Source: an uncultured Ignavibacteria bacterium (GTDB lineage Bacteria; Zixibacteria; MSB-5A5; SM1-73). Taken from it: a DNA stretch of 64,000 bases. Under the pieces are notes generated by a model. It made no database searches and was not told the origin of the DNA. It saw only the letters and a program-made list of their open reading frames with translations. The stretch lies in NCBI GenBank assembly GCA_964348415.1, contig CAYGCR010000002.1:25069-89068 (forward strand). The letters are read 5' to 3'. Numbering within the stretch: position 1 is the first letter of the stretch; each line of letters starts with the position of its first letter. The position numbers and the translations under genes were made by a program. This document shows, one piece after another, positions 2,424-41,365 of this stretch.

Positions 2424-2798
2424 ATGTTAGAAGTTTATTTTCCCATGTTCCTTTTGATCTTTGTAGTTATCGGAATGGCTCTCGCCATCTTGGGGCTTTC
2501 CTATCTCTTGGGCAGGAGAGTCCGCACCAAAGCCAAACTTTCCACCTACGAGTGTGGTAACGAGCCCTTTGAAGACGCCAGGGGAAGATTCTCAGTCAAA
2601 TTCTACTTAATCGCCATTCTCTTTATCATTTTCGACATAGAGGTTGTGTTTTTATATCCGTGGGCGGTCATATACAGAAAGCTGGGTGTTTTTGGCTTAA
2701 TTGAGATGGGGGTCTTCATTTTGATTCTTCTGGCAGGTTATTTCTATATCATCAAGAAGGGCGCCCTTAAATGGGAGGAGAGTGAGGAGATAACCTGA
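2424..2798 (+). CDS. nuoA: NADH-quinone oxidoreductase subunit A.
   Basis: Small 3-TM protein. The YECG-EPF motif-rich loop and the FLYPWAV segment are typical of NuoA/ND3. It is the first gene of the nuo cluster. An AGGAGG RBS sits 8 nt upstream of the ATG at 2424, whereas the ORF track begins at an upstream in-frame ATG at 2370. Confidence 0.85.
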   Translation: MLEVYFPMFLLIFVVIGMALAILGLSYLLGRRVRTKAKLSTYECGNEPFEDARGRFSVKFYLIAILFIIFDIEVVFLYPWAVIYRKLGVFGLIEMGVFILILLAGYFYIIKKGALKWEESEEIT

Positions 2799-2816
2799 TT
2801 CAGTTTAGGGAAAAAG

Positions 2817-3341
2817 ATGGGCTTGGAGGAATATATACCGCGAGGCATACTACTGACCGCCGTTGACAAGATGGTCAACTGGGCCAGGAGTTCATCTGTC
2901 TGGCCCCTGGCTTTCGGAACAGCTTGCTGTTCGCTAGAGGCGCTTGCCACATTCGCTTCCCGCTTCGACATGGCGCGATTCGGGATGGAAGTCTATCGGG
3001 CATCTCCCCGGCAGGCCGACCTGATGATCGTTGCCGGACGCGTTTCCAACAAGATGGCTCCGGTTGTCAGGACACTCTATGAGCAGATGACCGAGCCCAA
3101 ATGGGTGATAGCCATGGGCGCGTGCGCGTCCACCGGTGGCGTGTTCAACAACTACGCCATCATCCAGGGCGTGGACAAGATCGTGCCGGTGGACATATAC
3201 GTTCCTGGTTGTCCGCCCAGGCCGGAGCAGCTAATCGAAGGAGTGATGAAGCTGCACAAGAAGATTCAGCGGGAGTCGGTGAGAGGGCTTAAGGTACATT
3301 CGGTGCACGGATCAACGGACGAAACGGATCGAAGGATATGA
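2817..3341 (+). CDS. nuoB: NADH-quinone oxidoreductase subunit B (20 kDa, N2 cluster), copy 1 of a tandem pair.
   Basis: Carries the CCxxE, GxCA and PGCPP cysteine motifs of NuoB/PSST: [27 protein letters not shown]. Confidence 0.9.
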
Positions 3342-3385: not shown

Positions 3386-3877
3386 GTGGGTTTAGAGGAA
3401 TACATACCGCGAGGTATACTTCTGACCACGGTCGAGAAGGCGGTCAACTGGTCGAGGAAGTCGTCGCTGTGGCCGGTCACTTTCGGGCTGGCCTGCTGCG
3501 CCATAGAGATGATGTGCACGGCCGCATCCCGCTTTGATCTGGCGCGCTTCGGCATGGAGATCTTCAGGGCTTCGCCCAGGCAGGCGGATTTGATGATCGT
3601 GTCCGGACGAGTTTCGAACAAGATGGCACCGGTGGTCAGGCTGCTTTACGATCAGATGGCGGAGCCCAAGTGGGTGATCGCCATGGGTGCCTGTGCATCC
3701 ACCGGAGGCGTGTTCAACAATTACGCCATCATCCAGGGAGTGGATAAGCTTGTGCCGGTGGATATCTATGTTCCCGGATGTCCACCCAGGCCCGAGCAGT
3801 TGATCGAGGGTATTATGAAATTACACTCCAAGATCATGAAGGAGTCGCTGAAGCGATCAATGGATGAAACGGACTAA
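3386..3877 (+). CDS. nuoB: NADH-quinone oxidoreductase subunit B, copy 2 of the tandem pair.
   Basis: GTG start with a GAAGG RBS. All three NuoB cysteine motifs are present ([22 protein letters not shown]). About 80% aa identity to copy 1, with many synonymous nucleotide differences. Confidence 0.9.
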
Positions 3878-5662: not shown

Positions 5663-6151
5663 TTGACCTATATGTTGAATGAGACGGCTCAAAAGAAGAT
5701 CGCGGAGTTGAAGGGCAAGTATCCTCAGAGGCGGAGCGCCATTCTTCCGGCCATGCACGTGGTGCTGGAGGAGGTGGGCTTCTACAATCGGGACATCGTC
5801 AAGCAGGTGGCAGGCCTTCTTGATCTCAGCGAGATGGAACTCAGCGAGACCCTTTCCTTCTATACCTACTTCCCCAAGGAAGGGGTGGGGAAATATCACA
5901 TTCAGGTGTGCACCAACGTCTCCTGCATGCTTTCAGGGGCTGAGCAGTTGGTGAGTTACTTAGAGGAGAAGCTGAAGATAAAGGTCGGCCAAACCACCGC
6001 GGACGGCCTTTTCACGTTAACCGCGGTTGAATGCTTGGGTTCGTGCGGCACGGCTCCGGTGATGCAGATAAATCAGGCATACTACGAGAACTTGACCAGG
6101 GCCAAGGTGGATGAAATAATCGAGGAGTTGAGAAAGCAGGGAGGTACGTGA
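5663..6151 (+). CDS. nuoE: NADH-quinone oxidoreductase subunit E (24 kDa, 2Fe-2S).
   Basis: Thioredoxin-like 2Fe-2S cysteines: CTNVSC and CLGSCGTAPV. Confidence 0.9.
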   Translation: MTYMLNETAQKKIAELKGKYPQRRSAILPAMHVVLEEVGFYNRDIVKQVAGLLDLSEMELSETLSFYTYFPKEGVGKYHIQVCTNVSCMLSGAEQLVSYLEEKLKIKVGQTTADGLFTLTAVECLGSCGTAPVMQINQAYYENLTRAKVDEIIEELRKQGGT

Positions 6152-6274
6152 GACAGATCTCGGCTTAGTTGTGCCGGAGTGTCCCGCTTTAGCGGGACCA
6201 ACAAAGCCAGTCCACCTAAAGGCGGACACTCCAGCTTTGTTTCTCTATGTCTTTGTGAGGTCAGTTAGGAAGTA

Positions 6275-7555
6275 ATGGAAAAGATCCTGTTCAAACATAT
6301 AGACGTTCCTGATCAACATAAGATCGAGACCTACATCAAAAATGGCGGCTATCAAGCTCTGCCTAAAGCTTTGAAGGAACACACCCCGGATCAGATAATT
6401 GAGATGGTCAAGACATCCGGTTTGAGAGGAAGGGGAGGGGCCGGTTTCCCCGCCGGGATGAAATGGGGCTTCGTGCCCAAAGACTCGCCCCATCCCAATT
6501 TCCTGCTCTGCAATGCTGATGAGGGGGAGCCGGGGACATTCAAAGACAGGGCTTTGATCGAGAACGATCCCCACCAGTTGATAGAGGGAATCATCATTGC
6601 CTCATACGCCATAGGAGCGCACCAGGCCTTCATCTACATTCGCGGAGAATTCTATTTTGAGGCCAAGAGACTGCAGGAGGCGATAGACGAATCCTATCGG
6701 AAAGGATATCTGGGAAAGAATGTCCTGGGATCTGGATTCGACCTGGATCTCGATATACATAGAGGAGGAGGAGCCTACGTCTGCGGAGAGGAGACATCTT
6801 TGATGGAGTCCATAGAAGGGAAAAGGGGAAACCCCAGACTCAAGCCTCCTTTCCCGGCCTCGGTAGGACTTTATAAAAACCCGACGGTGATAAACAACGT
6901 GGAAACCCTGTCAAATGTTCCTCACATCGTGTTGAACGGAGGAGAGTGGTATGCAAAGATCGGCACGCCCAAAAGCACAGGCACCAAGATATTCTCCTTA
7001 TCCGGTCACGTGAAGAAGCCGGGAAATTATGAGCTGCCCATGGGCGTCACCTTGCGAGAGCTGGTCTACGAGCACGGCGGGGGAATAAAGAATGATCGCA
7101 AGCTCAAAGCGGTGATCCCTGGGGGGGTCTCCACCCCGGTTCTGACGGCCGACCTTATTGACGTGAAGATGGATTTCGATTCCCTTTACGAGGCTGGATC
7201 GCTGTTGGGTTCTGGAGCTACCATCGTGATGGACGAGACCACCTGTATGGTGAAGGTGGCCTACCGCATCTCCAAGTTCTTCGAGCACGAGTCGTGTGGA
7301 AAATGTGTTCCCTGTCGAGAGGGAACCAGATGGATCAGACAGATCATGGAGAGGATTGAAAACGGAAAGGGTAGAGAGGAAGACATAGAACCTCTGCGGG
7401 ACATCTGCGCCAATATAGCCGGAAATACCGTCTGCCCTCTGGGCGATGCGGCAGTTATTCCGATCCAGAGCACCATTGAGAAATTCCGGGATGAATACGA
7501 GTATCACATAAAGCATAAGAAATGTATGGTCGATTTGGGCCAGAGATTTCTCTAG
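6275..7555 (+). CDS. nuoF: NADH-quinone oxidoreductase subunit F (51 kDa, FMN/NADH site).
   Basis: FMN-binding GRGGAGFP motif and a C-terminal 4Fe-4S CGKCVPCREG motif. Confidence 0.92.
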   Translation: MEKILFKHIDVPDQHKIETYIKNGGYQALPKALKEHTPDQIIEMVKTSGLRGRGGAGFPAGMKWGFVPKDSPHPNFLLCNADEGEPGTFKDRALIENDPHQLIEGIIIASYAIGAHQAFIYIRGEFYFEAKRLQEAIDESYRKGYLGKNVLGSGFDLDLDIHRGGGAYVCGEETSLMESIEGKRGNPRLKPPFPASVGLYKNPTVINNVETLSNVPHIVLNGGEWYAKIGTPKSTGTKIFSLSGHVKKPGNYELPMGVTLRELVYEHGGGIKNDRKLKAVIPGGVSTPVLTADLIDVKMDFDSLYEAGSLLGSGATIVMDETTCMVKVAYRISKFFEHESCGKCVPCREGTRWIRQIMERIENGKGREEDIEPLRDICANIAGNTVCPLGDAAVIPIQSTIEKFRDEYEYHIKHKKCMVDLGQRFL

Positions 7556-7590
7556 GTCCGTCAACAGATTGAACGGATTAAACGGATAGC

Positions 7591-10775: not shown

Positions 10776-11234
10776 ATGTTTAAGGTTTTGAAAACGATAT
10801 TCTGGGCGATACCAAGGGGGTTGTCGGTGACTCTCAAGTACCTGCTTTCCAAGCCCACTACGGTGAGATACCCGGAGCAAAAACTGACACTTTCCCCGCG
10901 ATATCGGGGACTTCATTACCTGGAGAGACACGAGGACGGATCTGAGAAGTGCGTTTGCTGCGGCCTGTGTGCCGCGGCTTGCCCCTCCGGCTGCATCTAT
11001 ATGGAGCCAGCGGAAAACGAGTTCGGCGAAAGATATGCCAAAGTCTACGAGATAAACGAGCTCAGATGCATCTTCTGCGGATACTGCCAGGAGGCCTGTC
11101 CCAAGGAGGCGATATTCTTGGGAAAGGAGTACGAGTTCTCCAATGACAGACGGGATAAGCTAATATACAGCAAAGACGATCTGTTGGTTGCTTATCCCAA
11201 GAAAGCCTCGACGAACCGAACGGTCAACGGATGA
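10776..11234 (+). CDS. nuoI: NADH-quinone oxidoreductase subunit I (2x 4Fe-4S ferredoxin).
   Basis: Two CxxCxxCxxxCP motifs (CVCCGLCAAACP and CIFCGYCQEACP) and PRYRG near the N-terminus. I prefer the ATG at 10776 over the track start at 10689, which would overlap nuoH by 67 nt. Confidence 0.85.
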   Translation: MFKVLKTIFWAIPRGLSVTLKYLLSKPTTVRYPEQKLTLSPRYRGLHYLERHEDGSEKCVCCGLCAAACPSGCIYMEPAENEFGERYAKVYEINELRCIFCGYCQEACPKEAIFLGKEYEFSNDRRDKLIYSKDDLLVAYPKKASTNRTVNG

Positions 11235-11256
11235 AACGGATTGAACGGATGAGAAG

Positions 11257-17392: not shown

Positions 17393-17520
17393 CGAGGGCA
17401 AAAAAGAAGGTCGGGTGTTACCGTCAGACACCCGACCGATGAAAGGAGTGAAAAATGAAGGCCTCACTCTTTCTTGGGTGTATACGCTGAAACCCGCGTA
17501 AGGTTTCAAAAATCTTTAGT
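17393..17520 (+). repeat. Copy A of a ~120-nt conserved intergenic element: a hairpin followed by AGGAGTGAAAAATGA and downstream conserved blocks. Candidate sRNA or cis-regulatory element.
   Basis: Direct alignment against copy B shows shared blocks TCGGGTG...CACCCGA, AGGAGTGAAAAA(A)TGA, TATACGC, CCC, GGTT-CAAAAATCTT. Confidence 0.5.
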
Positions 17521-17854
17521 TGTCAGCAAAAATTCACCATAAACACGAATACTGTGTGAACCGCCCCATCGCCATGACTCTTTCCATCTATCCGTTTATC
17601 AGACGCTGACTGCGGGATTCGTCGCTAACACGCATAAAGGTCGTGACTCGTATGCCAGGCCAGCAGGTATTCCCGAAGCCTCCAAACCGCCGGCGTCAGC
17701 ATTTCCGGTGTTGAAGCGCCGTGGATCCTTCGCTTCCCCCGCAATGACGATTTTAGGCTTCCGATAACACGAACAGGGGATCACCAATGGGGGATGAGTT
17801 AGTACAAGCGCCAGCCTGGGTGAGAAGTGCCGGACGTACTTCTCGCTACGTGTA

Positions 17855-17990
17855 ACCGAGAAAACAAAGATCGGGTGCTCTGCTAAGAACACCCGATTTA
17901 GGCAAAGAAAGGAGTGAAAAAATGAGCGCGCCGCTATCTTCTCTTGTTTATACGCCCAGACCCTAGGGTGGGTTCCAAAAATCTTCCGTA
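17855..17990 (+). repeat. Copy B of the ~120-nt conserved intergenic element.
   Basis: Same conserved blocks as copy A. The short ORFs embedded in the two copies are in different frames, so the conservation is at the nucleotide level. Confidence 0.5.
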
Positions 17991-18104: not shown

Positions 18105-18130
18105 GCCCAATTATTGGGCCCTCTTTTTTG
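18105..18130 (+). terminator. Rho-independent terminator candidate: GCCCAA-TTA-TTGGGC stem-loop followed by a T6 run.
   Basis: Perfect 6-bp GC-rich stem followed by CCTCTTTTTTG on the plus strand. No U-run is present on the minus-strand reading. Confidence 0.5.
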
Positions 18131-18319
18131 TCGATGAATCGAGCAACAACGTCGACAAGCTCTTTGTGGATGCCATCCCAGAAAGGTATCTGGAATCTAC
18201 AACAGGAAGGCCGTAGGATGCGGGTGAGGGGTCCAACCCTTGTACAATGAGACTTAATCTACGAGTCAAAGGGATTGAGCGTGATAACGGATTAAACGGA
18301 TAGAACGGACGAACGAAAA

Positions 18320-21300
18320 CTAGGTTTGCATCCGCTTAATCTGTTCCATCCGTTGACCACTCTGACGCTTTCTCTTCTTGAACTCTCTGGCCTGGTGCAT
18401 GAAAGCCTCTAGGCGGGTTATTTCGTTGACGTCCTCCAGACCCTCGTAGGCCAAGTTAAGCCAGGGTACGTTGTCGAAATCCTCCCGGATTTTCTTTGAG
18501 ATAGCGGTGACTACAGTTCCGGGCATGCAGGCAAAGGGCATGGTGTTGACGATTCCAGAAAGTCCGTGGTCGATGTAATCGATGGCTTTCCCAACCGAGA
18601 GTATGGCTTCGCCGCCGAAGGATTCGTGCAGATAAGGGCTGGCCAGTTCCAAAATGTGCTCAATACCGGGTTCGTGGCCCTCCAGAATTGATCCTTCCAG
18701 CCTTTTCTCCAGCCGGTATTCTTTTCCTCTCTGGATCCGGTCGGTTAACCAGCCTTTTGCGTAGTCTTTGTAGCTTCTCTTAAGGAGGCTTAGCCTTTTG
18801 TACATGTAGGTGGTATAGTTGATCCATTCGGCCATCCCCGCCACCCATGCTTCTCCTCCCAGAGCCTCAATTTTTCTAACGAGGCTATTGTTGGAAAACC
18901 TGTTGGACCTTATGTAGATCTCTCCCACCACTCCGATGATCGGCTTCCTCTTTTCTCTATCCATTTCAATTTTGCGAAACATGTGCTTCGCCCAGGTCAG
19001 AGTCTCCTCGATGTCACCTTTGGATCTGATGGTTCTGGCCAACTGTTCCAAGCACCGGCGGTGGACCCGGTCGGTCTCACCTTTTTTCTTTTCATAGGGT
19101 CTGTTCTGATGCAGAAGCTTTGCCAGAAGATCTGTTGTCACCATCCCCTTCCACGCTAATTTGCGAAAATCACCGTCGAGGTTCGAAACAGTGGAATAAG
19201 AATCCTTGGAGTCCGGGGAGACAATCGGAACGTTAGGATAACCCATCTCATCCAGTATCACGCGGTGCAGGTTATGATACTGGCCGAATCGACAAGGACC
19301 GTTGGCCTTGGGCATGAAGAAGGCGACCTTATCTGCGTCTACTTCTGGTTTCCTCAGAAACTTGAGAAGATCGCCCGTGGTCAGAATGCAGGGGTAGCAT
19401 TCTTTTCCGGTGGTGAACTTCCTTCCCAGAATAAGTGTTTCCTCATCCGATTCGTCCATTACGTGAGCTTCCTGCCCACACGCTTCCAGAGCGGCTTCGA
19501 ACGATAAGGCATGATCACACATATAGGGGATATACAAAGTCCTGTGATTTTCAGACACAGCGATTTTGTATTTTTGTGCAGGTGGCTTCTTGTCGTATGG
19601 AGGCCGGTATTTCTTCAGGCTGTCCAAGAAAGCTTCGCAGCGGGTGATAACACCGGCGTCTGCAGAATGCTCATCCAGCTCGATCTGAAGATAAGGTTTG
19701 CCACACACATTCTTCCTGAAGAAATGAGTGATGAAAGAATCGGGACCACACCCGAAATTGGTTACATACAACCCGAAAAGGTTTTTGTGCATTTTGAGGA
19801 CTTCGGATGCCGCCAGAATCTTCTGCCCGTATTTCCAGTACATGTTAGGCAGATGGTCCCTTTTGATTTGAGGATCATGGATCAGGAAATCCATTGGAAT
19901 CGCCGGGGCGCCTAAGTCCGCAAGCTTTTTGGGTAGATTCAAGCTGAGTTCAAGATCGCAGGTGTTGTAGGGTCTTCCCACAATCACCAAAGCCTTCTGA
20001 TTCTCCTGCAGGTCTCGTAAGACCTCTTTCCCTTTTAAGGCTAGCCTTCGGTAAAACTCCTCCTGACAGGCTTCGGCCTTGAGCATGGCTTGAGCTATCT
20101 GTCTTTTTGTCCTCTTCAGCTCGCTTCCCAGCCTGGCGAGCGTCTTCAGAAGAATGCCCCTGTCCAGTTGGAAATATACCGGAAAGGAAATCAAGCGAGT
20201 CGAGTAATCTTCAAGATTTATGGCAGCTTTCATGACGTACGGCAGGGACTGCACATAAGGACAAGCATAATTCTCCTGATTGTGGTCATCCTCCTTTTGC
20301 ATGTTAATCAAGCTGGGGATGAAAATATAGTCCACTTTTTTGTTCAGGAGATTCAAAACGTGCCCGTGTGCTACCTTAACCGGAAAACAGCTTTCGGAAA
20401 GAACCTGTTCCGCACCCTGGCGGATGATCTTTTTGTTGGTCGGGTCGGAGAGCACCACCTCAAAGCCCAGCTCCTCGAAGAAGGTGGCCCAGTACGGGAA
20501 GAATTCGTACAAGAAAAGCGATCGGGGGATTCCGATCTTTTTCCTTGTTGTGGTCTTCAAACCAACTTGAGAGGATACAAATTCCTTGTGAAGGTTGAAG
20601 AGTATTCTCTCTCTTTCTCTAAACAGATCAGGAATGCTCGGTCTTTTGGATTTTCTTTTGGTGTCGTATTTTTCGCAACGGCTTCCATAGAATAGAGGCC
20701 GTTCACCCTCGACCTTGACCTCTTTTATCTCGCAGCGGTTGGGGCAGTCAGTGCATTCGAAAGTGGAAATGGAGTATTGCTTTTCAGACAGATCGAATCC
20801 CTTAAAGCTACTTTTGCCGCCCTTATACTCTTCCATGGCCAAGATGGCAGCACCTATGGCACCGGTTACATCATGATGAGGAGGAACGGTAACCTTTTTG
20901 CCGATAACCTCCTCGAAGGCAGCCACCACCGCTTTGTTCCAAGCTACCCCACCCTGGAAGAAGATGTGGTTACCCACCCTTTTGTCACCGACGACCTTAT
21001 TCAGGTAATTGTAGACTATCGAGCAGGCCAGACCCGCCACCAGGTCCTCTTTAGGAATGCCACTCTGCTGATGCGCCACAAGATCAGATTCCATGAAAAC
21101 CGTACAACGCTCGCCACAGTTGACCGGGCACCTGGATTTAAGCGCTAGATCCCCGAATTCCTCCTCAATATTGATGGACAGCTTTTCCGCCTGCTCTTGC
21201 AGGAACGATCCCGTTCCGGCCGCGCATACCTTGTTCATTTCGAAATCTACAACTGCTCCATCCTGCAGGCTGACATACTTTGAATCCTGCCCTCCAATCT

Positions 21301-31233: not shown

Positions 31234-32442
31234 ATGACCACCAAGTTTCAGGCCAAAGAGGCGGGGCTTACCGGCAATCTGCAGACGGTTCCCGTTTCCG
31301 ATCTGCTGCAGCTGATCAGCGCGGCTGCGAAAACGGGCATGCTTTCCATTTCGCAGGAAAGCAAGAAAAGACAGATATACTTCGTGAAGGGAAATATCAC
31401 CTGTGCCACTGCCTCGGGAACCGAAGATGAGCTTTTGGGGAACCTATTGTTGGCTCAGAAGAGGATTCCGAAAGCCGAGTTAGAACGGGCTCTAAGCCTT
31501 CAGAAGCTCACTCACAAAAGATTGGGCAGCCTGCTCCAAGAGATGGGCTTGATAAACAGAGAAGAATTGACAAAGTTTTTACGCTTCCAAGTGGAGGAGA
31601 TAGTCTACAATCTGTTTGGCTGGAGTTCCGGCGCGTTTACCTTTTACGAAGGTGAGTCGCCGCCTGCAGAACTGGTCACCACCCAGCTCAACACTATGAA
31701 CGTCATCATGGAGGGCACCAGAAGAATCGATGAGTGGATCCAAATCCAGCAGGCTCTTCCCTCGGACGATGTGAAGGTTCAAACCATCAAGAATCCTAAG
31801 ATAAAGTCAAATACCTTGACCATGAGCGTAGCGGAACTGCAGGTGCTGCCCCTGATAGACGGAGAGAAGAACGTTTCCGAGCTTATACAGACCAGCCCTG
31901 TGAGCGAATTCCACACGCGCAAAGCACTGTATAACTTGATCAGTTCAGGGTTGGTTGAGGCCGGCGAGAAAAAGAAGACGACCAAACACAAGATCAGTGA
32001 TGATAAGCTTCTTTTGTACGTGATAATCAAACTATACTCTCAGTCATATCAAACGCTGGAAAGAATGGCCTCCCGAAAATTAGGGCAGGGAGCGAAGAGG
32101 ATTTTAAAGAGATGTTTTGACGCTCAAAAATCCCTGCACCCTTTCCTAACTAAACTGGAAAGCTCTAAAGACTTCTTGGATTTCAGTCACCTGGAAAGCT
32201 CGGCGGGTAAGGTGACACAACCTATCCGATTTCACAAGCTGATGAACGCACTGAACGGTCTGCTTCTGGAATTTCTGAGGGCAGTATCCACAAGTTTGGG
32301 GAGAAACATAAGCAGACAGATCATATCCCAGATCAAGAAGGAAGCGGCCCAGGTCGTGGCCGAGCAAAGAGGAATCTCAAAAGAGTATGAGTTGGAGGAG
32401 GAGATTCTGAAGACTCTGAAAGAGAGTCAGCTGACTGCTTAG
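31234..32442 (+). CDS. PATAN/DUF4388-domain protein. This domain family has been noted in association with MglA-like GTPase loci.
   Basis: The N-terminal ~110 aa match the DUF4388/PATAN pattern: LTGNLQTVPVSDLLQLISAAAKTGMLSISQE...IYFVKGNI...ASGTEDELLGNLL. It is co-directional with and upstream of the mglBA cluster. Confidence 0.6.
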   Translation: MTTKFQAKEAGLTGNLQTVPVSDLLQLISAAAKTGMLSISQESKKRQIYFVKGNITCATASGTEDELLGNLLLAQKRIPKAELERALSLQKLTHKRLGSLLQEMGLINREELTKFLRFQVEEIVYNLFGWSSGAFTFYEGESPPAELVTTQLNTMNVIMEGTRRIDEWIQIQQALPSDDVKVQTIKNPKIKSNTLTMSVAELQVLPLIDGEKNVSELIQTSPVSEFHTRKALYNLISSGLVEAGEKKKTTKHKISDDKLLLYVIIKLYSQSYQTLERMASRKLGQGAKRILKRCFDAQKSLHPFLTKLESSKDFLDFSHLESSAGKVTQPIRFHKLMNALNGLLLEFLRAVSTSLGRNISRQIISQIKKEAAQVVAEQRGISKEYELEEEILKTLKESQLTA

Positions 32443-32471
32443 CAAAACTACACAAGTTCTCGAGGGTAAAG

Positions 32472-32873
32472 ATGGTTAAAAGACTCAGCTTTGTCGTTAT
32501 CTTGGGACTCATATTTTTTGCCGCAGGAGTCTGTTGCGCTCAGGAAGAGACTGAGGCTTTGCGGGCAACAGTTAGTGGTTCAGGCTCTTCATCGCCTGTT
32601 CCGGCGCTTCTGGACGTCTTACTTCTGGCGGGGGCGTTCGCCTGTTTTGTGATTTCCGTGAGGGTTAAGTCATTCTTGAGGGATGGGGAGCTGGCTTCGG
32701 GATGGACTCTTTTTTCGCTTTCTTTTGTGCTTCTCTTCGTGTCTCAGGTTCTGAGTTTATCCTTAAGTGCTGGGTTTCTGCAGGTCTCTCCCAGCATAAT
32801 CTCATCCCTGCGTGTTTTGTTCATCCTTCTTCTGGCTTCCGGTATCCATTTCATGAAGAAGGTTCTGAGTTGA
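32472..32873 (+). CDS. Small membrane protein (signal peptide plus 3 TM helices).
   Basis: Hydropathy pattern only. No family was recognised. Confidence 0.45.
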   Translation: MVKRLSFVVILGLIFFAAGVCCAQEETEALRATVSGSGSSSPVPALLDVLLLAGAFACFVISVRVKSFLRDGELASGWTLFSLSFVLLFVSQVLSLSLSAGFLQVSPSIISSLRVLFILLLASGIHFMKKVLS

Positions 32874-33111
32874 TAGGACACGGTTAAGCTCGTCGGCTTT
32901 ATGAACTTTCGTATACCCTCCAAATCCAGAAGGTGAGAGCACTTAGCCCCATTTTTTAATCCACTAAAGTTAAGTAAACGAATATGCTTGTCGATAAGTT
33001 TAGTAGTCGGATCTAGAGGGCTTTTCACGCTTCTTTCAGACGCCCCATTCTGGCAGATTCCTCTGCCGGGGATGGATTGTTGTTGTGTGACTGCCGGCCG
33101 GGGCGGTGTAA

Positions 33112-33960
33112 TTGAAGCCGAGAGGAATTATGCAACCCGGTTCGCAAGTGGACGAGAGAATCTCTAAGTGTGAAGAGATTCTGTCTCGTAATCCTAAGTC
33201 TGTGATTTTCGCGGCTCTGTCGGATGCCTACCGCAAGAAGGGAGATTTGGCCAGGGCGTTCCATATTTGCGGCCAAGGATTGAAATCTCATCCCGACTAT
33301 GGCCCGGGGCATCTGGTGATGGCGAAAATCAACATGGAAAGAGGGATGTACTCGGAGGCAGAAAGGGAACTGGCCCTGGCGGTCCGGGCAGATGGGAAGA
33401 CGAGAGCCACGGAGCTTCTTTTAGCTCAGATTTTAACAAAGAGGGGTCAAATAAAAGGGGCCAAGAAGATCTTGGAAAAGCTCAGAACCAGTGATCCAGC
33501 AAATGAGCTGATCGGTGAGCTGCTGGAGAGCATAAGGCAAAAAGAGAAATCAGACAAGCCCAGCCGTGCCATGGCAGCGGTGGATGAACGATGGCATATC
33601 GAGAAGGTCGCGGACCTTGAAGATGGCGTACACTGTTTGAAATCCTTGCCCGGGGTAATAGGAGCTCTGGTGATAGGAGAGGACGGATCAGTAATGGAGA
33701 GCAAGGTCAAACCTGAACTAGATCCAGAGGTGCTGGCCGCAATCGCCAACAGCATCACCGGATGTGTCAAGAACGGGATATCCGACGTGGGGTTTGGGGA
33801 ATATGCCGACATCTTGGTGGAAACTGGAAATCTCCAGCTGTGGATTACAGGTTTGAAGGAGACGTCTCTACTGTTATGTTGTGACCCCGAAACCAATATG
33901 GGGGCCTTGAGAATAAAAGTGACTGAACTTGTGGGACATATCTGGGGAAATGATGCATAA
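33112..33960 (+). CDS. TPR-repeat / Roadblock-LC7 (MglB-like) fusion protein.
   Basis: The N-terminal ~140 aa are TPR-like, with AYRKKGDLARAFHICGQGLKSHPDYGPGHLVMAKINMERGMYSEAERELALA. The C-terminal ~100 aa carry a Roadblock-like pattern: IGALVIGEDGSVMES...AAIANSITG...ADILVETGNLQLWITGL. Confidence 0.65.
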   Translation: MKPRGIMQPGSQVDERISKCEEILSRNPKSVIFAALSDAYRKKGDLARAFHICGQGLKSHPDYGPGHLVMAKINMERGMYSEAERELALAVRADGKTRATELLLAQILTKRGQIKGAKKILEKLRTSDPANELIGELLESIRQKEKSDKPSRAMAAVDERWHIEKVADLEDGVHCLKSLPGVIGALVIGEDGSVMESKVKPELDPEVLAAIANSITGCVKNGISDVGFGEYADILVETGNLQLWITGLKETSLLLCCDPETNMGALRIKVTELVGHIWGNDA

Positions 33961-33974
33961 AAAAGGGGAGTAAA

Positions 33975-34916
33975 GTGGCTAAGGATTACAGTAAGGAGCT
34001 GAGGGGAATCCTTCTGGTCTCACTTTTCATCGTGGTGGTACCGTTGGTATTCTTTCCTAAGGATTTCGGGTTAAAATTAGGATCTTCACTCGTTCTGCCC
34101 TTCGCCCTGGAGCTGGGGTGGTATCTGCTGGTTCTATTCATTATGTTTTCGGAAACAACAGCTGCGAGGGTATTGCTGTTTGCTTTGTTGACACTGGCTT
34201 ACCGTATCGGCCTGGGGATTGGATTTGGCATCCTTCTTCTGGTTATGTTCTCCCTGCCTTTATCCTCCGCCTTAGGCTTAGGTATCTACCGGTATGCGCC
34301 AGCTTTTTTGCTTCAGGCCTTGATGTCGCCATTCGCGCTCAAGTCGCTTTTTCAAGTTCTCACCCAAAGAGTAAAGAGAACACAGGAAATTCAAGTACCG
34401 GAAACGTCGGATGCAAAGTTTGCCCAGAAGACCGCCCGGCCGGCTCTGTCCGATGCTCCGCCTGAATTGGATAAAGAGTCGGATGGGGCGAAAACAGTTT
34501 CTTCCGAAAAGGAGAGCAGGGTGATAGGAGAAAACAAATTGGAACACATCTTACACTATCTAAGAGAATATGCCGGAGTCAAAGCCGCCGTTCTGCTCGA
34601 TCATGAGGGTCTGGTGATAGCTGAGGATTCTCGCGATTTTGATCCGGAAACTGTCGCCTGTTTCGGTCGATGCTTGAAGGAAATGAACGACCAAATGCTT
34701 CACAGGATAGGGCAAAAGACTGCGGAACGGATTGGAATTCATACAACAGATATGTGGATATGCTTAAACCAGGTAGGAAACTTGACGTTGCTGGTACTGT
34801 CGGATCGCCGCACGGACGAACTTCTTTCAGTTCGAATATCGCAGTCCACCGGAATGATAAGAAAACTTCTCAGCGAGAGATACCAGCCAGGAGTGTTAAA
34901 AGCCGTGGAGGTATGA
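33975..34916 (+). CDS. Polytopic membrane-anchored Roadblock/LC7-domain protein.
   Basis: Four predicted TM helices in the N-terminal 125 aa, a linker, then a Roadblock-like segment: VKAAVLLDHEGLVIAEDSRDFDPETVACFGRCLKEMND...NLTLLVLSD. Confidence 0.65.
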   Translation: MAKDYSKELRGILLVSLFIVVVPLVFFPKDFGLKLGSSLVLPFALELGWYLLVLFIMFSETTAARVLLFALLTLAYRIGLGIGFGILLLVMFSLPLSSALGLGIYRYAPAFLLQALMSPFALKSLFQVLTQRVKRTQEIQVPETSDAKFAQKTARPALSDAPPELDKESDGAKTVSSEKESRVIGENKLEHILHYLREYAGVKAAVLLDHEGLVIAEDSRDFDPETVACFGRCLKEMNDQMLHRIGQKTAERIGIHTTDMWICLNQVGNLTLLVLSDRRTDELLSVRISQSTGMIRKLLSERYQPGVLKAVEV

Positions 34917-34917
34917 C

Positions 34918-35268
34918 ATGTACAAGATATTGGAGGAATTGAACAAGACTACCGGGATCAACGGAAGCATGGTAGTGGGTCAGGACGGAATCGTGATTGC
35001 CGCGGATTTGAATTCCCAACTTCAGGACGAGGCGGTTGGTGCCTTGGCCGCTTCCATCGTTGGCACGGTTAAGAAATCAATGGAACGCCTTTCTAATGAA
35101 GACCTGAAGCAGATAACCGTGGAGGCCGATAAGGGTAAGTTTTTCTTTGCTGATGTGGGCATAGGCATCTTGGCGGTCACCACGGATCCCCAGGTGAACG
35201 TAGGATTGGTTCGTCTCGAGATCAAGAACGCGGCAGAAAAGATAAAACAGATACCCAAGTCCGTCTGA
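34918..35268 (+). CDS. mglB: MglB-type Roadblock/LC7 protein, the cognate GAP-family partner of MglA.
   Basis: 116-aa Roadblock-fold pattern: INGSMVVGQDGIVIAADL...ASIVGTVKKS...FADVGIGILAVTTD. Its ATG overlaps the upstream stop, and it lies immediately upstream of mglA as in the myxobacterial mglBA arrangement. Confidence 0.8.
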   Translation: MYKILEELNKTTGINGSMVVGQDGIVIAADLNSQLQDEAVGALAASIVGTVKKSMERLSNEDLKQITVEADKGKFFFADVGIGILAVTTDPQVNVGLVRLEIKNAAEKIKQIPKSV

Positions 35269-35300
35269 AGCTCACCCAAGCCGCCAAAGGGAGATAGAAG

Positions 35301-36275
35301 ATGGCATCCATAAACTATGCGTCCAAGGAGATCTCCTGCAAGATAGTCTTCTACGGTCCCGGCCTCTCCGGAAAGACAACCAATCTCCAATATGTTCACA
35401 AAAAGATTCCGCCTCAGACCAGGGGCGAACTGATCTCTCTGGCCACCGATCAGGATAGGACACTCTATTTTGATTTTCTTCCGGTGGACATCGGGAAGGT
35501 ACACGGGTTTTCCACCAAGTTTCAACTTTACACCGTGCCCGGTCAGGTGTACTACAACGCTACCCGGAAACTGGTGCTAAGGGGAGTGGACGGTCTGGTA
35601 TTTGTGGCGGACTCTCAGAAAAGCAAAATGGATGAGAACATAGAGAGCTTTCAGAACCTGGTGGAGAATCTATCAGAGTACGGATATAAAATAGACAGAA
35701 TTCCTGTAGTATTTCAGTATAACAAAAGGGACCTTCCCAACATCAGTCCTGTGGTGGAATTGGAGAAGACGTTGAACCCCAAAGGCTTGCCCCATTTCGA
35801 AGCCATCGCTACCAGGGGAATAGGCGTGTTCGATAGTCTGAAATGCATTAGTAAATTGGTCCTGGATCAAGCCAAGCGCAAGCAACTTTTCCCTGAAAGG
35901 GAGATGGCTGGGCAAGAAGCCGAAAAAGTGTCGGCCGATGGTGAGCTCTCGCAGACGCCGGAAAAAGAGCCGATTGCAGCAAAGGTGACCTCCACACCTA
36001 CGGCAACTGAAGTTTCAGGCCAACGGCCAGTTGCCACCTTAGCTAAGAAGGAAGTGGAGCCCTCCCCGAAGCAGATAATTCCAGAGCCACTAAAAGCTCA
36101 GCAGGAAAGAGTCCCGGAGGTCGGGCCGGACGCGGGCGAGTTCGCCGAAGAGGACGAGAAGATGGAAAGGACCTTGGCCAAAGACAGCTCCACCATAATA
36201 AGCTGGTCTGCCGGCAAGACGGCCAAGCCGGGAGGATTCTTTTTGTGGCGTTGGTTGAGCAAACTTTTCAAATAG
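35301..36275 (+). CDS. mglA: MglA-family Ras-like small GTPase with a ~130-aa C-terminal low-complexity extension.
   Basis: The N-terminal ~190 aa align closely to Myxococcus MglA: P-loop GPGLSGKT, intrinsic Arg in DRTLYFDF, catalytic Gln in TVPGQ, and NKRD G4. The C-terminal extension, rich in E/P/A/K/T, ends in GGFFLWRWLSKLFK. Confidence 0.85.
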   Translation: MASINYASKEISCKIVFYGPGLSGKTTNLQYVHKKIPPQTRGELISLATDQDRTLYFDFLPVDIGKVHGFSTKFQLYTVPGQVYYNATRKLVLRGVDGLVFVADSQKSKMDENIESFQNLVENLSEYGYKIDRIPVVFQYNKRDLPNISPVVELEKTLNPKGLPHFEAIATRGIGVFDSLKCISKLVLDQAKRKQLFPEREMAGQEAEKVSADGELSQTPEKEPIAAKVTSTPTATEVSGQRPVATLAKKEVEPSPKQIIPEPLKAQQERVPEVGPDAGEFAEEDEKMERTLAKDSSTIISWSAGKTAKPGGFFLWRWLSKLFK

Positions 36276-36288
36276 ACAGAGTGGAGGT

Positions 36289-36825
36289 GTGAAATTGAGA
36301 CAGGAGGACCTTGTAATCTACGAGGAGCAAATCGAGAAGATAGAAAAAGCTCTGATGAAGTTGATCAAGGGCGCACAAGCCAAGTGTGTTCTCCTGGTGG
36401 ATAAAGATGGGCATCTGATCACTCGACACGGTTTCACTCAGTCTTTGGATACCACTGCCTTGGCGGCGCTTCTGGCGGGAAGTTTCGCTTCCACCCGAGA
36501 GATCGCCCGTCTTGTTGGAGAGCCGGAATTTTCAGTTCTTTTCCACCAAGGCAAAAAGGATCATATCCACATAACCCTGGTGGGCGAAAGGACCATTCTG
36601 GCGGTCATCTTTGATGATCGGACAACCATCGGTATGGTTCGGCTGTATGCCAAGGAGGCCTCGGAGAATCTGAAGAGAATCCTGTACCTCACCCAGCATC
36701 AGAAGCCCCGAGGCGAACCGGAAAAAGAAGCAGATGCAGATTCAGAGTTCTCCACCTCTTTGGAAAGCAGGCTGGATGATATCTTCTCCGATAAGCCCGA
36801 GAAAGAGGATATCCCAACGGGATGA
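36289..36825 (+). CDS. Roadblock/LC7-domain protein with an acidic C-terminal tail. It is a second stand-alone MglB/MglC-like paralogue.
   Basis: Roadblock-like segment: AKCVLLVDKDGHLITRHG...AALLAGSFASTREIA...ILAVIFDD. The tail is EPEKEADADSEFSTSLESRLDDIFSDKPEKED. Start is GTG or TTG. Confidence 0.65.
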   Translation: MKLRQEDLVIYEEQIEKIEKALMKLIKGAQAKCVLLVDKDGHLITRHGFTQSLDTTALAALLAGSFASTREIARLVGEPEFSVLFHQGKKDHIHITLVGERTILAVIFDDRTTIGMVRLYAKEASENLKRILYLTQHQKPRGEPEKEADADSEFSTSLESRLDDIFSDKPEKEDIPTG

Positions 36826-36954
36826 GCGTGCTCAAAGTCCGGGAGACATGTGGTCGGGCTGTGCTGAAAGTGGCCAATCTCTCCAAGAAATTCTGAGGGC
36901 TGGAACGTCATTGGATGTGAGACCCTAAGTGAGCCTTTGATTATCAGCTAAGTT

Positions 36955-38646
36955 ATGTCACGTGAACTGGGACAAATGCTAGTTAAGGCGGGCAAGATAT
37001 CCGAGGAACAGCTTGCCCAGGCCTTAGAGTCACAGAAACAGAGCAAAGAGAAATTAGGCGATGCTCTCATAAGAACGGGTGCGCTCTCCGGTGAGGAGGA
37101 GCTCTCAGAGTTTATCGGGAGACAGCTAAATATCGGCGCTTTGAGGCTTTCCGACATTGAGCTCAACCCTGAGGTGGTCAAGATGATTCCCCCGGACATC
37201 GCCCGAAAGTTTAATGTCATCGCCATCAGCAAGCTGGGCAAGACATTGATAGTGGCCATTTCCGACCCCAACAACATCTATGTTCTGGACGCCATAAAGT
37301 TCATCTCCGGGCACTCGGTCCAGCCGGTCATAAGTCCAGAGAAAGCCATTCAGAAGGCCATTGATGCCTACTATCAAGACACCGGAGGATTGGACCAGAT
37401 TCTTAAGGGACTGAAAGAAGAGGATCTGCAGGTCATCGAGGAGAACGAAGACATTCCTACCGAACAGGATCTAAGGTCCCAGGTGCAGGACAAGCCTTTA
37501 GTCAAGTTGGTGGACTCTATCATCGCGGACGCTATTCGAAGAGGATGTTCGGACATCCATATCGAAAGTTATGAGAAGCGAATAAGAGTCAGATACAGAT
37601 TGGATGGTCGTTTGCAGGAAATGTCTCCCTTGCCCTTTAAATATCGTGCGGCCCTGGTTTCCCGGGTAAAGATAATGGCTGACTTAGACATCTCCGAAAG
37701 AAGACTACCCCAGGACGGCAGGATTAAGGTGAAGTTCGGCGAGAGGGCGGTGGATCTAAGGGTATCCGTGTTGCCCACCATATTCGGTGAGAAGGTGGTA
37801 ATGCGCATTCTGGATCCCAGAAGCGTTAACGTGAATCTGACCAGACTGGGATTCTCGGAAAACTCACTCAGGCAGTTCCAAAAAGCCATTCACTTTCCCT
37901 ACGGCATGATACTTGTGACCGGACCCACCGGGAGTGGTAAAACTACCACTCTCTATTCAGCTTTGAAGCAGATTAACCACACGGACATCAATATAACGAC
38001 CGCCGAGGACCCGGTGGAATTCAATTTTGACGGCATAAATCAGGTGGCGGTGAAAAGTGAGATAGGGTTAAGCTTTGCCGCGTCCTTACGATCGTTTTTG
38101 AGACAGGACCCGGACGTGATCATGGTGGGAGAGATCAGAGATGGCGAGACTGCAGAGATCGCGGTGAGAGCCGCACTAACCGGACATCTGGTGTTCTCCA
38201 CGCTGCACACCAACGATGCTCCCAGTACCATCGATCGGCTGATCGATATGGGCATTCCCAATTATCTGGTGGCCTCCTGCGTCAGGTTGGTCATGGCTCA
38301 AAGAATGGTGCGCAAGATCTGTCCCAGCTGCAAGCGCGTGGCTCAAGTTCCCAAAGCCACTTTTGAGATGTTAGGATTCGGCGATGAGCAGATAAAAGAT
38401 CTGAAGGTTTATGAAGGCAAGGGTTGCTCCGAATGCAATGATACCGGCTATTCCGGGAGAACCGGGATTTTTGAGGTGATGCCGATAAGTCCTGAGATCG
38501 AGAAGATGATCGTTTCCAACGCCTCCAGCGCAGAGATAAGAGAACAGGCCATATCCGAGGGCATGCTGACTTTGAGAATTGCCGCACTGGAAAAGCTGAA
38601 GCAGGGCACCACCACTGTGGGAGAGGTCTTAGCGGTGACTTCCTAG
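36955..38646 (+). CDS. pilB: Type IV pilus assembly (extension) ATPase PilB, of the GspE family.
   Basis: N-terminal T2SSE_N domain, Walker A VTGPTGSGKTTTL, the tetracysteine CxxC...CxxC motif (CPSCKR...CSEC), 563 aa. Confidence 0.85.
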   Translation: MSRELGQMLVKAGKISEEQLAQALESQKQSKEKLGDALIRTGALSGEEELSEFIGRQLNIGALRLSDIELNPEVVKMIPPDIARKFNVIAISKLGKTLIVAISDPNNIYVLDAIKFISGHSVQPVISPEKAIQKAIDAYYQDTGGLDQILKGLKEEDLQVIEENEDIPTEQDLRSQVQDKPLVKLVDSIIADAIRRGCSDIHIESYEKRIRVRYRLDGRLQEMSPLPFKYRAALVSRVKIMADLDISERRLPQDGRIKVKFGERAVDLRVSVLPTIFGEKVVMRILDPRSVNVNLTRLGFSENSLRQFQKAIHFPYGMILVTGPTGSGKTTTLYSALKQINHTDINITTAEDPVEFNFDGINQVAVKSEIGLSFAASLRSFLRQDPDVIMVGEIRDGETAEIAVRAALTGHLVFSTLHTNDAPSTIDRLIDMGIPNYLVASCVRLVMAQRMVRKICPSCKRVAQVPKATFEMLGFGDEQIKDLKVYEGKGCSECNDTGYSGRTGIFEVMPISPEIEKMIVSNASSAEIREQAISEGMLTLRIAALEKLKQGTTTVGEVLAVTS

Positions 38647-38773
38647 GCAGTCAGTAGGAATAGGCGAAGCCAAGGGGAACAGGAGGTCAGGTTTAAGAAT
38701 CGGTATGCCGGGTCGATAATATATATGAAAGTGGCCCTCCTTTGGCTTTGAAAAGGAAAAGTGGGGATAAAAG

Positions 38774-39868
38774 ATGGTTACTTTACGAGAACTTCTGGAA
38801 CTGATGGCAAAAAAGAACGCTTCAGATCTTCATCTTACCGTGGGCTCGCCACCCCAGCTCAGAATAGACGGAAAGCTGGTCAAGACTGATTACGACATCT
38901 TGACGGCAGATGAAACCAAGAAGTTGGCCTACAGCGTGATGACTGAAAAGCAACGGCAGACATTCGAGGAAAAAAGCGAGCTGGATCTTTCCTTCGGAAT
39001 TGAAAACTTGAGCAGATTCAGATGCAACATCTTCATGCAGAGGGGCAATGTGGCGGCAGCTTTAAGACAGATTCCTTTTCGCATTCCGAGTTTTGAGGAG
39101 TTGGGCATACCCAAGGTAGTCTCGGAGTTGGCCGACCTGCCCAGGGGTTTAGTCTTGGTGACCGGGCCGACTGGAAGCGGAAAATCTACCACCTTGGCCG
39201 CCTTGATCAACAAGATAAATCTGGAAAGGTATTGCCACATTCTCACGGTGGAGGATCCCATTGAATACCTTCATCGACACAATTGTTCCCTGATTAACCA
39301 GAGGGAGGTTTATGCCGACACCGCCTCTTTTGGCAAGGCTTTGAAATACGCCTTGAGAGAGGATCCCGACGTGGTGCTGGTGGGAGAGATGAGAGATTTG
39401 GAGACCATGGAGGCGACCCTGAACATCTCCGAAACCGGACATCTGGCATTCGCCACCCTGCACACCAACTCCTGCGCTGAATCGATAAACAGAATCATCG
39501 ACGTTTTTCCCACCAATCAGCAGGAGCAGGTCCGGGTGACCGTCTCTTTTGTTTTGCAGGCGGTGATAAGCCAGCAGCTGATTCCCAGGATAGGAGGAGG
39601 AAGGGTGTTGGCTCTGGAGATTATGATCTGCACACCGGCCATCAGAGCTTTGATCAGGGATGACAAGATTCATCAGATCTACAGTCTTATGCAGGCAGGG
39701 CAGAAGTTTGGCATGAGGACCATGAATCAAGGTTTAGCTGAGCTCTACATCAAGCATAAGATAACCTTGGGGGACGCTCTGGGAAGAAGCTCAAACATCC
39801 AGGAGCTAAATGAGATTTTGGCCAGAAAATCTGATGCCAGCCGGCAGCGGTCGGCCATTGGCGCTTAG
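38774..39868 (+). CDS. pilT: Twitching-motility retraction ATPase PilT.
   Basis: Walker A VTGPTGSGKSTTLAAL, the His box ATLHTNS and the PilT-type N-terminus ELLELMAKKNASDLHLTVGSPP. Confidence 0.85.
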   Translation: MVTLRELLELMAKKNASDLHLTVGSPPQLRIDGKLVKTDYDILTADETKKLAYSVMTEKQRQTFEEKSELDLSFGIENLSRFRCNIFMQRGNVAAALRQIPFRIPSFEELGIPKVVSELADLPRGLVLVTGPTGSGKSTTLAALINKINLERYCHILTVEDPIEYLHRHNCSLINQREVYADTASFGKALKYALREDPDVVLVGEMRDLETMEATLNISETGHLAFATLHTNSCAESINRIIDVFPTNQQEQVRVTVSFVLQAVISQQLIPRIGGGRVLALEIMICTPAIRALIRDDKIHQIYSLMQAGQKFGMRTMNQGLAELYIKHKITLGDALGRSSNIQELNEILARKSDASRQRSAIGA

Positions 39869-40019
39869 CTGGAAGAGGCGAGGCTATACTATACAGAGAC
39901 ATGACTTGCAGTGGAGGGTAGCTAAAGGAGCGCCGATGTATGGTTGAAGGCACCGGATCGGGCTCTGGTTAAGGTATTCAGGCTTTGGCGGTAACGTTTT
40001 CTGAGGGAAGGAGGACAAA

Positions 40020-41219: not shown

Positions 41220-41365
41220 ATACAACCTGACTGCGCTGAGCAAGTCAAAAATACATCTAACCTAACCTTGCACCACTGCGGCTCTTAGCGGTGGTGTAAG
41301 TTTTTAAGCATTTTTAGGTTTCAAATCCTGAACAGTTTCTTATTACGTCCGGAAAGCGAATCCGA

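Follow-up and report, generated by a model that had tools for sequence, protein, structure and literature searches.

The present study examined a duplicated element on a 64,000-nucleotide stretch of contig CAYGCR010000002.1 (the whole of this stretch is hereafter called the window). The element sits in the 1.1-kb intergenic gap between nuoN, which ends the nuo operon, and a gene for a 1417-aa BcrAD/BadFG-type 'activase', whose 3' end borders the gap. The NuoN protein encoded in the window has a 100% identical counterpart on contig WVZS01000410 of the metagenome-assembled genome (MAG) GCA_011772335.1, and its nearest named relatives belong to Candidatus Zixiibacteriota. A first-pass annotation of the window had reported two ~120-nt copies with ordered common blocks, and these are present (Table 1). 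The block GAAAGGAGTGAAAAA is identical between the copies at 15/15 positions and the block GGTT(T/C)CAAAAATCTT at 14/15, and both copies also have TATACGC and a GC-rich hairpin in common. Both 15-mers are unique to the two copies within the window even at 2 mismatches, a search for which 0.26–0.5 matches per 64-kb window would be expected by chance; a chance origin is excluded mainly because homologues exist in other contigs. The duplicated element is confirmed as a real feature; the strand and the role of every one of its blocks had been misassigned. Both units lie on the minus strand, so that they converge with nuoN and share the orientation of the activase gene upstream of them. We consider, with moderate confidence, that they are probably two tandem paralogous small RNA (sRNA) genes, induced by a sigma factor of the extracytoplasmic function (ECF) class and acting in trans as blockers of translation initiation regions.

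The hairpin gives the clearest indication of strand. It had been described as a 7-bp stem at the 5' end of a plus-strand element; the hairpin itself stands, its stem measures 10 bp in one copy and 12 bp in the other, and instead of a 5' stem each is a Rho-independent terminator forming the 3' end of a minus-strand RNA. On the minus strand both hairpins run directly into a T-run (CCTTCTTTTTTG and TCTTTGTTTTCT), and on the plus strand both are followed by purine-rich sequence. A T-rich tail after the hairpin was found in all nine distinct copies, on the minus strand only, and the terminator scan called the copy-2 terminator on the minus strand. Each unit therefore has the GC-rich stem-loop and the U-run on the transcribed strand that characterise an intrinsic terminator. 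Compensatory changes, which the first-pass annotation had proposed to look for among relatives, were found at two pair positions of the stem (GC to AU), and a further seven cells of the stem alignment are G-U or U-G. As G-U pairs turn into C-A mismatches on the opposite strand, this pattern favours the minus strand, on which 96.7% of the cells are paired (87/90) versus 90.0% (81/90) on the plus strand. The predicted sRNA 1 folds with a minimum free energy (MFE) of -29.6 kcal/mol (z = -4.4 versus shuffled controls) into a 5' hairpin and the terminator hairpin, and sRNA 2 with an MFE of -28.8 kcal/mol (z = -3.9 versus shuffled controls) into a 5' hairpin, a single-stranded CACUCCUUUCUUUGCCUAAA and the terminator. 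In each RNA the 5' hairpin is formed by the purine-rich 5' end pairing with the U-run. A conserved 5' hairpin was rejected as a feature of the family, the register differing between variants and the consensus fold retaining the terminator only.

The opposite end of each unit has the architecture of a promoter. The blocks TATACGC and GGTTYCAAAAATCTT, previously listed as conserved 3' blocks, are the reverse complements of CGTA and TTTGRAAC, respectively, and represent -10 and -35 promoter elements around a variable spacer. On the minus strand the order is AAGATTTTTGRAAC, 16–17 nt and (G)CGTATA, all upstream of the remaining element. The -35 sequence TTTGRAAC is kept in 11/12 homologous copies, the exception being the locus pair L025 and L026, which reads TTCTGGAAC; the core invariant across copies is TGRAAC, and the -10 CGTA is invariant in all 12. 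The spacer is held at 16–17 nt in length with its sequence free to vary. The ECF-class consensus comprises a -35 of tgaAAC and a -10 of CGTA or CGTC, with CGTA going with sigma-W in Bacillus (PMC5758882). An AAC core and CGTA, 16–17 nt apart and directly upstream of the predicted RNA, were found in all copies, and TTTGRAAC-N16/17-CGTA is accordingly read here as a putative ECF-sigma-type promoter with a presumed ECF sigma factor. The automated promoter scan covered the sigma-70 type only and found no sigma-70 promoter in the region; other promoter types were judged by inspection. Sigma-54, sigma-32 and sigma-28 promoters were rejected on spacing or missing invariant bases.

It is unlikely, though to be taken seriously, that the minus-strand sRNA genes are instead served by a non-ECF sigma factor, possibly of the housekeeping or heat-shock type, in which case the link to stress or the envelope would be wrong. 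TTGRAA and TATAAA/TATACA partly resemble sigma-70 hexamers, promoters of Zixibacteria are uncharacterised, and the missing ECF sigma gene in the window and the frequency of the loose motif by chance, both returned to below, would suit such a factor. However, the TTGRAA/TATAAN hexamers would need a 19–20-nt spacer, which is outside the sigma-70 range, in line with the empty sigma-70 scan. The T at the last -10 (-7) position is also missing, and the invariant AAC and CGTA are ECF hallmarks (PMC5758882). A promoter of the Bacteroidetes -33/-7 type was likewise rejected, its TAnnTTTG -7 box being missing.

Homologues were collected from contigs encoding NuoN relatives, and the first seven copies supplied the covariance model with which these contigs were searched. 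In total there are 12 copies, from nine independent Zixibacteria contigs and at one or two per locus; all of them are downstream of nuoN and on the other strand. The further copies that the first-pass annotation had called for are thus present in eight other contigs, with covariance-model E-values from 1e-17 to 1e-32. The element occurs where NuoN is 86–91% identical. Two copies in the same order as in the window were found in L016 and L011, and a single copy in L003/L004, L020, L023/L024, L025/L026 and L028. It is absent from L017 and L021, where the neighbouring genes are the same, and from L005 and L007, where they differ. At L005, where NuoN is 81% identical, an operon downstream of nuoN (5709–7311) replaces both the sRNA genes and the activase. 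Its products are an ECF sigma factor, a 169-aa protein whose family is unknown, and a Spy/CpxP-like protein (Metal_resist). Scans with an exact pattern that combined promoter and CU-rich block gave seven matches among metagenome contigs, of which L011 was the sole true homologue, and one chance match with no true homologue among viral contigs. The scanned collections evidently hold few close relatives.

Conservation is confined to the units themselves. Among L003, L023, L025 and L028, the 87 nt from CGTA through the terminator stem show 0 differences, while the promoter spacer differs at 3–7 of 17 positions and the 60-nt flanks at 21–43 of 60 (ungapped), except in one closely related pair with 4/60 differences downstream; for the most part the flanks are unalignable. 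An RNA body that is invariant behind a varying spacer demonstrates purifying selection on that body, as read from the alignments. Comparison of the intergenic region with all relatives by blastn left four alignable parts only (Table 1), from which it follows that the conserved islands span promoter to terminator and no further. The gene boundaries, the strand, the terminator and the promoter-like architecture are established by these observations.

Table 1 Features of the nuoN-activase intergenic region and of associated repeats (window coordinates)
Feature	Position	Strand	Remarks
nuoN, end of nuo operon	stop at 17175	plus	
BcrAD/BadFG-type 'activase' gene, 1417 aa	stop at 18320	minus	3' end at gap
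Copy 1 of element	17409-17516 (plus-strand coordinates)		~120-nt unit
Copy 2 of element	17870-17985 (plus-strand coordinates)		~120-nt unit
Gene 1 -35 region	17503..17516	minus	AAGATTTTTGAAAC; core TTTGAAAC at 17510-17503, T-tract upstream
Gene 1 -10 element	17483..17486	minus	CGTA; 16 nt after TTTGAAAC
Predicted sRNA 1, ~76 nt	17400..17475	minus	predicted 5' end ~8 nt after CGTA
sRNA 1 CU-rich region	17441..17463	minus	GGCCUUCAUUUUUCACUCCUUUC; complementary to SD + A-rich spacer + AUG + AAGGCC
sRNA 1 intrinsic terminator	17400..17437	minus	10-bp stem + T-run
sRNA 1 terminator stem	17437-17428 with 17418-17409	minus	GGTCGGGTGT/ACACCCGACC; tail UUCUUUUUU at 17408-17400
Gene 2 -35 region	17972..17985	minus	AAGATTTTTGGAAC; core TTTGGAAC at 17979-17972
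Gene 2 -10 element	17951..17954	minus	CGTA; 17 nt after TTTGGAAC
Predicted sRNA 2, ~86 nt	17859..17944	minus	5' end predicted
sRNA 2 CU-rich region	17901..17929	minus	GCGCUCAUUUUUUCACUCCUUUCUUUGCC; conserved
sRNA 2 intrinsic terminator	17859..17897	minus	12-bp stem, 17897-17886 with 17881-17870, one mismatch; tail CUUUGUUUUCU
blastn footprint, unit 1	17394-17539		
blastn footprint, unit 2	17862-17985		
blastn footprint, palindrome	near 18105		
blastn footprint, AACGGAT repeats	by activase stop		
AACGGATNR runs	3314-3328, 3859-3873, 7563-7586, 11226-11249, 18286-18309	plus	
AACGGATNR run	18340-18354	minus	

The plus strand of the element presents a hairpin, an apparent Shine-Dalgarno (SD) sequence with a start codon and a short open reading frame (ORF), and the first-pass annotation had considered a cis-regulatory leader. 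A hairpin with a ribosome-binding site and a translated mini-ORF, encoding a leader peptide or small protein, or else a cis-regulatory leader, perhaps within a long nuo 3' untranslated region (UTR) ending at 18105–18130, is in our judgement highly improbable. The sequence GAAAGGAG-N7-9-ATG does form a near-ideal initiation region kept in all copies, gene callers placed a 37-codon ORF at the conserved ATG of L016 (5845–5958), a plus-strand terminator lies downstream, and there is a weak match to the hairpin-plus-SD leader model RF03128, a ribosomal-protein leader (22.5 bits, E ~0.3). That match, however, falls short of the gathering threshold of 33, and a leader lacks anything to regulate: no gene follows the element on either strand, and in particular no plus-strand gene lies downstream of copy 1 or copy 2. 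The mini-ORFs MKASLFLGCIR* and MSAPLSSLVYTPRP* exist in the window as reported and do read TATACGC in different frames. Across the homologues the TACGC block starts 25, 26 or 27 nt from the conserved plus-strand ATG depending on the copy, which corresponds to three frames, and the mini-ORFs run to 11, 14, 21 or 37+ codons with unrelated stops. Only MKA is common to the peptides, because the underlying nucleotides are conserved, and past it they are unrelated. This bears out the earlier view that conservation is at the nucleotide rather than the peptide level; neither the conserved frame nor the conserved peptide expected of a small protein or type I toxin was found, and the alignments establish that the plus strand is under no coding constraint. 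Nor would a plus-strand element account for the U-run, present after the hairpin in all copies on the minus strand and in none on the plus strand, for the G-U pairs that become mismatches on the plus strand, or for TATACGC and GGTTYCAAA around a variable spacer of fixed length. Paralogous sRNAs, which the first-pass annotation had also proposed, are the best class of explanation, though on the strand opposite to the one it took. A 97-aa minus-strand ORF between the copies (17599–17892) has no Pfam match and overlaps a terminator, and was treated as spurious.

The same plus-strand sequence could matter in another way, if the minus-strand RNAs acted mainly on an overlapping plus-strand transcript (the mRNA of a mini-ORF, or read-through from nuo), in the manner of type I toxin-antitoxin pairs or antisense control of 3' UTRs. 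The RNAs are by construction fully complementary to the plus strand, and this produced the top matches of the target search; the element is always linked to nuoN; and the terminator scan found no plus-strand terminator between nuoN and 18105, so nuo transcripts may cross both genes. We nevertheless give such cis-antisense pairing a very slim chance. The mini-ORF peptides are too short (11–14 aa in the window) and too variable for toxins, L017 and L021 keep the nuoN-activase arrangement without the element, and, since both strands co-vary automatically, pairing in cis leaves unexplained why the CU-rich block alone is invariant between diverging paralogues. A repeat that acts at the DNA level and yields no RNA, for instance a miniature mobile element or clustered protein-binding sites, is scarcely credible. 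Relatives do carry repeats in their intergenic regions, including REP-like hairpins, AACGGAT repeats and a CCCAAT palindrome, but the element has no terminal inverted repeats or target duplications, is found at this one locus only instead of being dispersed, and has compensatory changes in its stem. Its promoter-to-terminator layout and the 0/87 differences in its transcribed part fit a gene.

That CU-rich block is the core of the two predicted sRNAs. The sequence AGGAGTGAAAAA-ATGA, taken earlier for an SD plus a start codon, is the complement of the CU-rich stretch UCAUUUUUUCACUCCUUUC, which is the candidate pairing region of the RNA. The longest invariant block of the alignment is (G)CCUUCAUUUUUUCACUCCUUUC; the CU-rich block is unpaired in the consensus fold, and the MFE fold leaves CACUCCUUUC unpaired in four of five RNA variants. 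The block is complementary to a strong initiation region consisting of GAAAGGAG, an A-rich spacer, AUG and AAG, and for this reason its mirror image had the appearance of AGGAGTGAAAAA-ATGA. The 3' tail of 16S ribosomal RNA (rRNA), the anti-SD, ends in ...GAUCACCUCCUUUCU-3'. The UCACUCCUUUCU of the sRNAs is the same as UCACCUCCUUUCU of the 16S rRNA 3' tail with one C fewer. The sRNAs would thus recognise the same messenger RNA (mRNA) sites as the ribosome; unlike the rRNA tail, they are not part of an rRNA, and the extra UCAUUUUUU on their 5' side makes them more specific for A-rich spacers and AUG. An anti-SD pairing region is plausible in the host because window genes use SD-like motifs above background (16/41 genes versus 16%).

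Under the favoured reading, each gene would be a self-contained unit of a T-tract-TTTGRAAC, 16–17 nt, CGTA, a transcript of ~75–90 nt and a Rho-independent terminator. Stress, possibly of the envelope, would release a cognate ECF sigma factor and thereby cause the sRNAs to be made; these would pair with the SD and start-codon region of target mRNAs and so block ribosome binding, and decay of the target mRNA may follow. It is distinctly unlikely, but would be of interest, that the sRNAs are stress-induced mimics of the 16S rRNA 3' tail and serve as a global translational brake under ECF control instead of regulating a few targets. In that case UCACUCCUUUCU plus the U-run would compete with ribosomes for strong SD sites with A-rich spacers, which would be typical of highly expressed secreted or envelope proteins, and the candidate phylum Zixibacteria would gain in these RNAs its first described family of regulatory RNAs.

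A number of observations weigh against two ECF-controlled, trans-acting sRNA genes. Transcription itself, the 5' ends and the sigma dependence are all inferred, as are the target mRNAs and any dependence on Hfq. In its loose form, GRAAC-N16-17-CGTA would turn up ~1.9 times in a shuffled window and is therefore not rare by chance, so that the promoter call rests on the pattern of conservation rather than on any one match. No ECF sigma gene was found within the window among the ORFs tested, which were of small and medium size, and the only ECF sigma operon observed among the relatives, at L005, lacks TTTGRAAC-N16-17-CGTA upstream. The family is narrow, being limited to relatives with 86–91% identical NuoN and absent from four other related loci, and a pattern scan of species-representative genomes found no family member, the one match (Formosa) being due to chance. 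The G-U strand signal is modest, amounting to 6 cells out of 90, and is secondary to the T-run evidence. The MFE fold of the nuoN-proximal paralogue, sRNA 1, partly sequesters the CU-rich block in the 5' hairpin, by way of the 5' arm GAAAGAGUGA. Finally, neither the 64-kb window nor ~90 kb of fetched loci yielded a convincing mRNA target; the search, which scored duplex energies over the window and compared the complementary initiation region with every locus by fuzzy matching, returned antisense self-matches only.

The predicted RNAs most closely recall the sRNAs of sigma-E and other ECF envelope-stress regulons, with which we compared them: MicA, RybB and MicL of E. coli, VrrA and MicV of Vibrio, and ErsA (Pseudomon-1) of Pseudomonas. 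Likenesses are a short RNA (~70–100 nt) with an ECF-type promoter directly upstream and a Rho-independent terminator, here predicted, the presence of more than one such sRNA per regulon, and the expected pairing with initiation regions to repress abundant mRNAs (PMC4102768). Unlike those sRNAs, the present ones come from Zixibacteria, a member of the FCB (Fibrobacteres-Chlorobi-Bacteroidetes) group, and have no sequence or structure homology to them, the best Rfam score being 15.7 bits to Pseudomon-1 (E = 2–4) against a gathering score of 50. The pairing region also differs from the 5'-end seed of RybB in being an internal anti-SD-like stretch. The Rfam scan suggested by the first-pass annotation gave no family match for the region, where permissive E-values produced only chance-level matches (the L31-Coriobacteria leader, PK-BYV and Pseudomon-1), and across the whole 64 kb no Rfam family reached its gathering score, including transfer RNAs, riboswitches and known sRNAs.

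A second comparison is with the cuckoo or CcsR1-4 (RSs0680) sRNAs of Alphaproteobacteria, which are also tandem homologous sRNAs and are induced by stress, as is only proposed here. Each cuckoo/CcsR RNA carries a conserved CU-rich anti-SD-like motif with stems free to vary (PMC4615179, PMC8034643), and a CU-rich anti-SD-like motif is likewise present in each of the sRNAs described here. Cuckoo RNAs comprise 2–4 hairpins with CCUCCUCCC in each loop (PMC4615179); that motif is absent from the present sRNAs, which have instead a single CACUCCUUUC block in the linker that joins a variable 5' hairpin to the terminator. CcsR1-4 share a transcript with a DUF1127 gene, whereas a separate promoter and terminator belong to each copy here; the taxon is also different, and an Rfam match is lacking. 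In the C-rich/UCCC-motif sRNAs of Firmicutes, RsaE/RoxS, unpaired C/U-rich motifs occlude the SDs of several mRNAs, with a terminator hairpin in the scaffold. Unlike their several short C-rich motifs, there is here one 20–24-nt block over the SD, spacer and start codon, and no Rfam homology.

The two predicted genes represent an uncatalogued sRNA family in an uncultured phylum, and belong to neither the sigma-E nor the cuckoo families. No literature linking Zixibacteria with regulatory small RNAs or with a promoter type was found in the library searched. The promoter-to-terminator unit provides a candidate Rfam family and a candidate ECF promoter consensus for Zixibacteria. If the ECF link is true, the design of an ECF sigma factor plus repressing sRNAs would reach beyond Proteobacteria into the FCB group, which would suggest its repeated evolution. 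More generally, what looks like an SD, an ATG and a hairpin can be an sRNA gene in mirror image.

The plus-strand intrinsic terminator reported at 18105–18130 exists, as a palindrome GCCCAATTATTGGGC followed by CCTCTTTTTT, but is not part of the duplicated element, since L017, which lacks the element, keeps it. Related CCCAAT(N)AATTGGGCAACTAC copies are present in L020 (twice), L017 and L023; as these include a locus without sRNA genes, the palindrome is an independent conserved element. It may be the terminator of the nuo operon or a binding site. Transcripts of nuo extending that far would cross both sRNA genes in the antisense direction.

A 9-nt periodic sequence, AACGGATNR, occurs in tandem runs of 2–3 units, with 9 matches versus 0.04 expected in the window. 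Within the nuo operon these runs occupy intercistronic gaps, and 3/4 sites lie directly upstream of start codons without an SD. The last two runs of Table 1 form an inverted pair around the activase stop codon. Runs were found at corresponding places in L003, L005, L017, L020 and L023, and AACGGATNR could be a protein-binding or RNA-level regulatory repeat. The enlarged nuoN-activase gap of L023 holds several REP-like (repetitive extragenic palindromic) hairpin repeats, CCCTCTCCCCTTTGGGGAGAGGG, at 2700–3330. Elsewhere in the window, positions 31234–43225 encode a DUF4388 protein, three Roadblock/LC7-domain proteins and a small Ras-like GTPase, followed by type IV pilus genes (PilB-, PilT- and PilC-like, plus a PilS-like histidine kinase). 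This arrangement resembles an MglA/MglB-type polarity module adjoining pilus genes, which is ordinary in itself and informative on lifestyle.

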